Source: a virus
Virus genome (UHGV): UHGV-0338394
DNA length: 11,858 bases
Direction: 5' to 3' (one strand)
Shown: piece after piece, positions 6,645 to 10,585 of the stretch
Layout of the letters: the number at the start of each line of letters is the position of its first letter
How positions within the stretch are numbered: the stretch's first letter is position 1
Made by a program: the position numbers and the translations under genes
The notes under the pieces: model-generated
Seen by the model: only the letters and a program-made list of their open reading frames with translations
The model's database searches: none
What the model was told of the DNA's origin: nothing

Positions 6645-6893
6645 TTATCCCTACTGCCCTACTAAAAACGAGACGAGGCCAGACGTAGCAAGGCTTTAAA
6701 CTAGGTAGGGATATATATTTTTATCCCTACTTATCCCTACTTATCCCTACCAAATAAAACAGGCAGCAAAATGCCGTTGAAGTGATTTAGTAGGGATAAG
6801 TAGGGTTATGTAGGGCAACAAAATTGAATGCCTACCAGTCTGAAAGCCTTGCCATTCGTGGCCTGAGCCAGTTAGTAGGGATTGGTAGGGATA
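6645..6893. repeat. Iteron array, probably the replication origin: at least ten copies of TTATCCCTAC / GTAGGGATAA in both orientations
   Basis: Direct copies at 6645-6654, 6721-6730, 6731-6740 and 6741-6750 (a head-to-tail triplet). Inverted copies at 6704-6713, 6790-6799, 6800-6809, 6810-6816, 6875-6883 and 6884-6893. An A-rich spacer lies between the clusters. The array is immediately 3' of the primase gene, as ori/crr is in P4. Confidence 0.7.
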
Positions 6894-6945
6894 TTACACC
6901 CCCAAAAAGATTCTATGGGGGGGTAGCTTATAACGAAGGTGGGCA

Positions 6946-9292: not shown

Positions 9293-9835
9293 ATGTACCA
9301 GCTAAAGATAACCATCCGAGACAGCAAACCACCTATATGGCGGCGTGTGCTGGTTCCAGAGCAAATCCCCTTTAGTAAACTTCATGCCGTGATCCAGTTA
9401 GCTTTTGGCTGGAATGACGAACACCTGTATATGTTCGAGAAAGGGCGTAAAGGTGATCCAGGTAGCGAGTATCACGTATGGGGTGAGGATGAAAGCATGG
9501 GTAACGCGGCAATCACGCCACTATGGGCGGCGCTCCAGAATGAGGGTGACAAGCTGGTTTATACGTATGACTTTGGCGACTGGTGGGATTGCGTCATTGT
9601 GCTGGAGAAGCAAACACACGATACGAGTAATCAGCCCATTAGCTGCCTGCGTGGGAAAGGCACCACCCCGGCGGAAAACTCAGGCGGCTTGCATGGTTAC
9701 AATGAATTGCTATTACAGGCCAGAGAGTCTGATAATCCTGAGCAGGCCGAGATCCACAATTTCCTGATGCTGGATATTGAACGCCGGGTTTACGACCTGA
9801 GCCGCATCAACGACAGATTGCAGGCTATTAACTGA
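9293..9835 (+). CDS. PRiA4_ORF3-like protein (plasmid pRiA4b ORF-3 family), 180 aa
   Basis: N-terminal signature LKITIRDSKPPIWRRVLVPEQIPFSKLHAVIQLAFGWNDEHLYMF matches my recollection of the family's PpIWRR...LH..IQ.aFgW..HLh.F pattern. Assigned from memory. Confidence 0.75.
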   Translation: MYQLKITIRDSKPPIWRRVLVPEQIPFSKLHAVIQLAFGWNDEHLYMFEKGRKGDPGSEYHVWGEDESMGNAAITPLWAALQNEGDKLVYTYDFGDWWDCVIVLEKQTHDTSNQPISCLRGKGTTPAENSGGLHGYNELLLQARESDNPEQAEIHNFLMLDIERRVYDLSRINDRLQAIN

Positions 9836-10187
9836 CCCGCATGTATTCACCTGATATTGCGTTATCAGCGCCGCCAGTATCGCGCATAACAGCGCACTGA
9901 CCTGGTAAACCGTAGCGCACGACCGTTGCGTTAGTTTCACCGCCGCGCCGTATCTGGCGCGATTCATACACTATCACCCGCTCAAGCAACCCACCAGCAA
10001 CCATGCTTTCCAGTGTGCGCCGGGTTGATTCGATCTGGTGGCGCTTATCGAACGACACCATGCCATGAAGCAGGTAGGCCACACCCGACACATCGAACGG
10101 CGGCGCACCAATCTCACCAGTCACCCATTCGAGGTTATCCGGTTCAAAGTAGCTAAGTATCTCTTTTTTGCGGCTGGTCATTCTCAT
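9828..10187 (-). CDS. Hypothetical protein, possibly a winged-helix DNA-binding protein (119 aa), convergent with and overlapping the PRiA4_ORF3-like gene
   Basis: Minus-strand ORF whose 3' end overlaps the 3' end of 9293-9835 by 8 nt. An AAGGAA ribosome-binding site lies upstream on the minus strand. The segment RRTLESMVAGGLLERV is reminiscent of a winged-helix recognition region, a weak inference. Confidence 0.55.
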   Translation of the reverse strand: MRMTSRKKEILSYFEPDNLEWVTGEIGAPPFDVSGVAYLLHGMVSFDKRHQIESTRRTLESMVAGGLLERVIVYESRQIRRGGETNATVVRYGLPGQCAVMRDTGGADNAISGEYMRVS

Positions 10188-10199
10188 GGCTGGCAGGTT

Positions 10200-10233
10200 C
10201 CTTATTGTGGGATAGCGGTATCATACAATAAGG
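10200..10233 (-). promoter_or_regulatory. Perfect 9-bp inverted repeat CCTTATTGT-N16-ACAATAAGG covering the ribosome-binding site of the minus-strand gene
   Basis: Arms at 10200-10208 and 10225-10233. On the minus-strand mRNA the AAGGAA site lies inside the proximal arm, 12-13 nt from the start codon at 10187. Confidence 0.4.
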
Positions 10234-10443
10234 CGCAAAAGATAAGAGGCCAGAACAGCAAGCATGAGAGCATAAAATGAGCAGCCAAAGACAGCACCTC
10301 AAAATACCGTGTACACAAGGGTGTACCTACTTAGAAAACGCATTACAAGGAATCCAGTAACCACGCAGCCTAGAGACTCCTACTCAATAAACAGATTCAA
10401 TTGAGTAACTCGTAACACTAATTCTTACTTTTCAGCCTTCACA

Positions 10444-10476
10444 AATGCCGCCCACTCAAACAGAGCGGCATTTTTC
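10444..10476 (+). terminator. Orphan intrinsic terminator-like hairpin (AATGCCGC-N13-GCGGCATT followed by TTT)
   Basis: 8-bp stem (10444-10451 pairing with 10465-10472), a 13-nt loop, and a 5-T run to 10475 that overlaps the stem end. No + strand ORF ends within about 600 bp upstream. Confidence 0.45.
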
Positions 10477-10565: not shown

Positions 10566-10585
10566 AACTGTATATAAATACAGTT
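10566..10585. promoter_or_regulatory. LexA (SOS) box of dinD
   Basis: AACTGTATATAAATACAGTT contains the CTGT-N8-ACAG core and matches the LexA operator of E. coli dinD as I remember it. It lies about 45 bp upstream of the dinD start. Confidence 0.85.

Follow-up and report, generated by a model that had tools for sequence, protein, structure and literature searches.

The question raised by this locus is whether an inverted repeat lying directly in front of a small gene acts as DNA, i.e. as a binding site for a regulatory protein, or as RNA, by folding over the ribosome-binding site of the gene that it precedes. The repeat occupies 34 bp of the viral genome UHGV-0338394, whose 11,858 nucleotides were analysed as a whole and are referred to in the following as the window. 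A first-pass annotation of this DNA had offered both possibilities, a translational on/off hairpin and an operator dyad bound by a dimeric regulator, which might be the encoded protein itself. The features on which the argument turns are these:

9828..10187, minus strand: g119, the gene of a 119-aa protein and candidate dyad binder, predicted to be a winged helix-turn-helix and without family assignment
10198..10203 (reading 10203->10198), minus strand: Shine-Dalgarno candidate AAGGAA, with 4/6 bases within the proximal arm
10200..10233, minus strand: the dyad, a 34-bp imperfect palindrome and proposed operator, delimited by a repeat finder and kept in about 150 loci
10201..10208, minus strand: proximal outer half-site ACAATAAG, which overlaps the first Shine-Dalgarno bases and whose alignment columns are invariant or nearly so
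10209..10224, minus strand: inner arms ATGATA / TATCCC, which differ between lineages, and the centre CCGC, which varies freely
10225..10232, minus strand: distal outer half-site CTTATTGT, where base conservation of the module begins in the alignments

The two 9-nt arms originally described, CCTTATTGT (10200-10208) and ACAATAAGG (10225-10233), are indeed exact reverse complements separated by 16 nt, and their coordinates agree with the window sequence. The repeat finder places longer arms at 10200-10214 and 10219-10233, 15 nt each and complementary at 13/15 positions (87%), around a 4-nt centre GCGG. On the minus strand the dyad reads CCTTATTGT-ATGATA-CCGC-TATCCC-ACAATAAGG, followed by AACCTGCCAGCC-ATG, and a minus-strand mRNA across it, if transcribed, would read ...CCUUAUUGUAUGAUACCGCUAUCCCACAAUAAGGAACCUGCCAGCCAUG. 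How far such a repeat exceeds chance was assessed with Markov simulations of a window of the same size and composition. Perfect 9-nt inverted repeats with a loop of 3-20 nt number four in the window against a simulated mean of 1.0, and at least one occurs in 53% of the simulations; a bare 9/9 repeat is thus expected about once per window and is unremarkable taken alone. By contrast, repeats that match at 13/15 positions around a short loop number only 0.017 per simulated window, which makes the extended version rare. The real evidence that the dyad is not a product of chance lies in its conservation.

The gene behind the dyad begins with the ATG at 10187, which opens a frame of 119 codons, and this start codon can be regarded as fixed because the N-terminus MRMTSRKK is kept in all homologues. 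AAGGAA is the only purine-rich stretch before the ATG, as the first-pass annotation had noted, but its placement inside the stem applies just to AAGG, the four bases that fall in the proximal arm; likewise, the distance of 12-13 nt from the start fits the GG, at 12 nt from the ATG, while the last A lies at 10 nt. The GGA of this motif is conserved past the limit of the dyad in the alignments. As for the protein, its AlphaFold model is a winged helix-turn-helix with a beta-hairpin wing. Searches of Pfam, NCBIfam, PHROG and PADLOC returned no match, so that it could not be placed in MarR, ArsR, PadR, BlaI or any other of these curated families; nothing among the PDB sequences scored below E = 1, and BFVD yielded unnamed proteins only. 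A role as an Rpp-like packaging factor was rejected, as neither this protein nor the neighbouring small proteins matched a PDB sequence. At its 3' end the gene converges with a PRiA4_ORF3 gene, the two overlapping by 8 bp (9828-9835), and the ends of their transcripts would be mutually antisense.

In E. coli, a phage satellite of the PICI type has integrated at the 3' end of yicC, next to dinD, and the window covers its right end. A near-identical island in strain NH-21 carries genes for an integrase, an AlpA-like helix-turn-helix protein, AntA/B, an Icd-like protein, a P4-family primase, SSB and PRiA4_ORF3, with the 119-aa gene on the opposite strand, transcribed against the AlpA-driven island operon. 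Integrase, AlpA-like regulator, primase with iteron origin and att duplication are all present and virion genes are absent; the assignment draws on the annotation of NH-21, on the iterons, on an alignment of attL, attR and attB, and on a layout as in PMC6092414. Just after the primase gene, at 6700-6895, about nine iterons (GTAGGGATA / TATCCCTAC) in both orientations flank an A+T-rich stretch, and this layout of two iteron sets matches the origin described for Gram-negative PICIs (PMC6092414). Between the stop of the 119-aa gene and a conserved 61-aa gene lies a variable cargo slot (9293-9835), which holds PRiA4_ORF3 here and elsewhere (L007, L011, L012, L016, L021, L023) a SocA/Panacea-domain pair, an IrrE-like peptidase, DUF2280, a Mutator-family transposase or a second integrase. 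Judged from these comparisons, the islands keep the 119-aa gene as a conserved terminal element. The outer boundary is given by one further feature:

~10392..10409, plus strand: attR core, the duplicated 3' end of yicC and right island boundary, from a three-way attB/attL/attR alignment

Genomes free of the island align only from window position 10400 onward, and with the core at ~10392-10409 the dyad falls inside the island, about 185 bp from attR. The core reads CAGATTCA..ATTGAGTAA (10392-10409), and yicC at attL receives a replacement stop region from the island. In the right arm, GTGTACACAAGGGTGTACC (10309-10327) is similar to GGTGTATACAAAGGTGTACCC and to the GGGTACA repeats that adjoin the integrase gene at attL, and all of these are probably integrase arm-type sites. 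Beyond the boundary, a perfect 9-bp inverted repeat AAATGCCGC/GCGGCATTT followed by TTTTC (10443-10473) is the host yicC terminator, from which the island now separates yicC. Further on, a near-consensus LexA box CTGTATATAAATACAG at 10568-10583 lies some 30-45 nt upstream of dinD (candidate starts 10617 / 10629), the host SOS gene that adjoins the island, and is unrelated to the dyad.

Conservation was examined in about 150 related loci gathered from species-representative genomes, metagenomes, viral contigs and E. coli genomes. The arrangement CTTATTGTATGATA-N4-TATCCCACAATAAGGAA...ATG is present in every satellite-type locus, and the dyad always accompanies the 119-aa gene regardless of integrase, cargo or replication module. 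Upstream of it the 5' flanks fall into about 50 unrelated classes, and similarity starts exactly at the outer edge of the distal arm. The module is carried by 538 of 5426 complete E. coli genomes (~10%), and the alignments of other island types stop at window position 10232. The distance of the dyad to the start codon is fixed (~12 nt) over all integrase types, whereas that to att varies, from about 200 bp here to less than 120 bp in Yersinia. Mean pairwise identities among 25 species-level loci are as follows:

each dyad arm: 0.91
119-aa gene, codon position 1: 0.80
119-aa gene, codon position 2: 0.83
119-aa gene, codon position 3: 0.56
4-nt dyad centre: 0.48
5' flank of the dyad: 0.30

With the arms at 0.91 and no codon position above 0.83, the constraint on the arms is base-specific and stronger than that on the coding sequence, and the palindrome ranks with the most strongly conserved DNA of the island. 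A dyad symmetry that is conserved in sequence and adjoins the gene of its own putative regulator has the attributes expected of an operator, and these alignments indicate that the element is genuine, strongly selected and acts in cis as part of the 119-aa gene. In the distant phage homologues (L034, L035, L037, L120) the dyad is missing; it is therefore specific to the satellite subfamily, and one distant phage homologue has a canonical TTGACC-N17-TATAAT promoter in its place.

Several neighbourhoods of the homologues deserve mention. Three of the distant phage copies (L034, L035 and L037, 25-35% identity) stand beside Rha/ANT antirepressor genes, just upstream of genes for GpA-type large terminases. 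A 45%-identical homologue (L122) has three TATTGTACA motifs upstream of its gene, which lend weak support to a possible preference of the family for TTGTA-containing sites. On the viral contigs L157 and L182, an additional half-site-like CTTATTGG occurs ~11 nt upstream of the dyad, one helical turn from the distal arm; no such extra copy was seen in the other flank classes. Several islands (L015 4437-4889, also L011, L013, L014, L019, L021 and L023) carry a gene for a conserved ~150-aa protein (MSKSLSVTFRVPAEL...) in the same orientation as that of the 119-aa homologue. The window lacks this gene, which sometimes follows the homologue directly downstream and so suggests a two-gene operon in those islands. 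Finally, in some E. coli lineages (L123, i.e. O157:H7 E32511, 9224-9309; L124; L126) a PerC-family gene diverges from the homologue at 85-114 bp from its start, and the dyad of these lineages consequently lies within a shared divergent control region. The O157:H7 island with this arrangement occupies the same yicC/dinD site.

Whether the dyad can act as RNA depends on where transcription starts, and two hexamers within it come into consideration:

10220..10225, minus strand: TATGAT, a -10-like hexamer in the distal arm from a position-weight scan, which would start transcription near 10213
10225..10230, minus strand: TATTGT, a second -10-like candidate in the outer part of the distal arm, proposed from the alignment

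A scan for the sigma-70 consensus reported no promoter at the dyad. In the position-weight scan of 27 loci, the promoter with the embedded TATGAT ranks first to third in 17, and no better candidate recurs in the unrelated 5' flanks; there is no convincing -35 element by the dyad (CTCTTA in the window). In some lineages TATGAT becomes TATGAG or TATGAC, losing T-7, so that it is not a universal -10 element and the assignment of the promoter is insecure. TATTGT retains T-12, A-11 and T-7 in nearly all lineages and has a mirror copy on the plus strand at 10203-10208. Either hexamer would put the start at ~10212-10218, inside the dyad, and a leader that begins near 10213 folds at -4.1 kcal/mol (z +0.9), i.e. 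it is unstructured. The start mapped by RACE for pchE in O157 Sakai (PMC7369912) was set aside as uninformative on the dyad, for it belongs to the primase-downstream ssb-pchE operon of prophage Sp7 and not to a homologue of the 119-aa gene.

If transcription began instead upstream of 10233, the two arms could pair in the 5' untranslated region and occlude AAGG, and translation would be low or conditionally opened. Folding, which had been suggested as a check on this idea, returned a stable stem: provided that both arms are transcribed, a 42-nt segment folds at -12.5 kcal/mol (z -4.8) with the AAGG of the Shine-Dalgarno motif paired, and the hairpin persists in a 101-nt context. It would form in any transcript that holds both arms. 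Natural variants range from -3.1 to -15.1 kcal/mol, most of them between -7 and -15 with the Shine-Dalgarno motif paired, but the variant found in seven loci reaches only -3.1 kcal/mol. Covariation beyond that of column shuffles was found neither in 27 loci nor in 52 distinct variants. When more distant lineages were included (72 distinct variants), two-sided cells numbered 10 against 4.2 expected and the covariation score was 0.072 against 0.057, each matched by one of 500 shuffles; this weak excess stems from about four to five events. Among them are two-sided switches of the inner arms, in which GATA/TATC has become GAGA/TCTC in one lineage and GACAG/CTGTC in a second, and the variable outer position switched from T-A to A-T two or three times. 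The inner arms also show several one-sided breaks, and in the set of 72 the outer variable pair is unpaired in 16 variants, one inner pair in 14 and another in 10. Dyad symmetry is favoured, as the operator and the hairpin models both predict, and it is base identity, not pairing, that is tightly held; a simple occluding stem has no need of bases kept above the level of coding sequence. The inner distal arm of O157:H7 is disturbed by an insertion of 4 nt that leaves CTTATTGTA...TACAACAAG in place, and the Shine-Dalgarno AAAGG now stands 5 nt from the ATG and outside the arm, with the outer dyad kept. A search of Rfam 15 gave no match to the dyad element at E <= 1, and the unrelated flanks offer no consistent promoter upstream from which both arms would be transcribed. 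The loose pairing, the held base identity, the shifted Shine-Dalgarno motif of O157:H7 and the lack of an Rfam match together speak for a protein that recognises the DNA sequence. The translational switch thus keeps its thermodynamic plausibility, and we consider it rather unlikely, whereas the operator for a dimeric regulator fits better, given the predicted winged fold, the conservation of the arms above coding sequence and the module edge at the dyad, with binding itself being a prediction.

If a protein reads the dyad, it need not be the product of g119. The AlpA-like island regulator, a helper-phage protein or a host factor could bind there and so tie the gene to the life cycle of the satellite. 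In its conservation and module edge the dyad behaves as protein sites in general do, the gene runs opposite to the AlpA-driven operon, and PICI genes respond to helper phages (PMC6092414, PMC11773190); yet the motif occurs nowhere else in the island, the dyad stays with the 119-aa gene through every change of integrase, cargo and replication module, and no LexA, CRP or lambda cosN pattern fits it, which makes an outside binder unlikely in our estimate. More improbable still is that the dyad is a purely structural site of the DNA and takes no part in expression, for example by organising the attP arm for recombination or by providing the 119-aa protein with a packaging or replication signal to bind. 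Such a site would agree with the position next to the variable integrase-arm region ~185 bp from the attR core, with the location of the distant phage homologues just upstream of terminase genes, and with the TATCCC-AC that an arm has in common with the origin iterons, but it is the distance to the start codon that is fixed and that to att that varies, no lambda-type cosN is present, and the iteron likeness requires a 1-nt gap and may be due to chance.

Other readings were tried and rejected. The dyad was not reported by a scan for intrinsic terminators, its stem is A+T-rich, and it is followed by AACCTGCC and no T run. It does not conform to the LexA pattern CTGT-N8-ACAG or the CRP pattern TGTGA-N6-TCACA, the true LexA box lying 350 bp away in front of dinD, and it matches an IHF site only in part. 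An att core or integrase arm site is excluded by the position of the core at 10392-10409 and by the persistence of the dyad across unrelated integrases, a lambda-type cos site by the lack of cosN. A link to the origin iterons through TATCCC-AC was dismissed as well, since the match to the proximal arm, obtained with the gap just mentioned, has no statistical support.

The explanation that we favour, with a confidence that is about evenly balanced, is that the dyad is a sequence-specific DNA operator over the promoter and 5' end of the 119-aa gene, probably bound by the product of that gene. Under this explanation the dyad would cover the core promoter and the first transcribed bases, and the winged helix-turn-helix protein would bind as a dimer or as a pair of dimers. 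The outer half-sites CTTATTGT / ACAATAAG, which are invariant, would be read by the recognition helix (ESTRRTLE), likewise invariant, and the beta-hairpin wing, which varies, would come to lie near the variable inner arms; the bound protein would block RNA polymerase, resulting in negative autoregulation. In islands with a PerC-family gene diverging 85-114 bp away, the same site might control that gene too. We infer the binding of the protein to the dyad, the position of the start and the sign of the regulation. Some observations count against this explanation. From centre to centre, 24 bp separate the outer half-sites, a spacing that is unusual for a single winged-helix dimer. Half-sites are not enriched in the flanks (4 observed against 6 expected), and none beyond chance occurs elsewhere in the island, which leaves the dyad without an independent second site. 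An RNA stem would be expected to show the compensatory changes just as well. A wider proposal, which we regard as unlikely, is that g119 together with its dyad constitutes a self-contained repressor-operator module, conserved at the end of enterobacterial PICI satellites. Such a module would gate the accessory slot (PRiA4_ORF3, Panacea toxin-antitoxin, IrrE-type peptidase, DUF2280 and similar) and, in EHEC O157:H7 and other E. coli lineages, also divergent PerC-family virulence regulators, possibly via two face-to-face promoters that use the palindrome arms as -10 elements.

Among the known systems that come closest, autorepressed winged-helix regulators (MarR, ArsR/SmtB, BlaI/MecI and PadR types) likewise combine a small protein, here predicted to have a helix-turn-helix and a beta-hairpin wing, with an imperfect palindrome directly upstream of its own gene, over -10-like hexamers and the Shine-Dalgarno region; the 119-aa protein, however, stands outside all these families by sequence, and the 24 bp between its half-sites exceed the usual width of a single-dimer site. 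Hairpins that sequester the ribosome-binding site (translational operators, ROSE/fourU RNA thermometers) resemble the dyad in that a stable stem-loop would cover AAGG, with GG 12 nt from the start, but the dyad has no family match, its covariation is weak or absent, many of its pairs are broken, and its stem is conserved by sequence. With the regulatory modules of PICIs (AlpA in Gram-negative, Stl/Rpr in Gram-positive hosts) the locus shares the setting, i.e. a PICI-type island with integrase, AlpA-like gene, P4-type primase and iteron origin (PMC6092414), as well as a gene for a small predicted DNA-binding protein transcribed independently of the main operon. In contrast to these modules, the 119-aa gene lies by the accessory slot, at the att end distal from the integrase and not beside it, and its product shows no sequence relationship to AlpA or Stl.

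Autoregulation by a winged-helix protein at a palindromic operator is a textbook mechanism. The kind of mechanism is accordingly ordinary, and what is new is the protein family and its constant position at the border of PICI satellites. Of the complete E. coli genomes ~10% contain the module, which also occurs in many further Enterobacterales, always at the edge of a satellite island, and the slot that adjoins it exchanges accessory, defence and PerC-type virulence-regulator genes. If the 119-aa protein does repress via the dyad, it would represent a previously undescribed regulator of the PICI accessory region, and together the two would make up a simple, portable repressor-operator pair.
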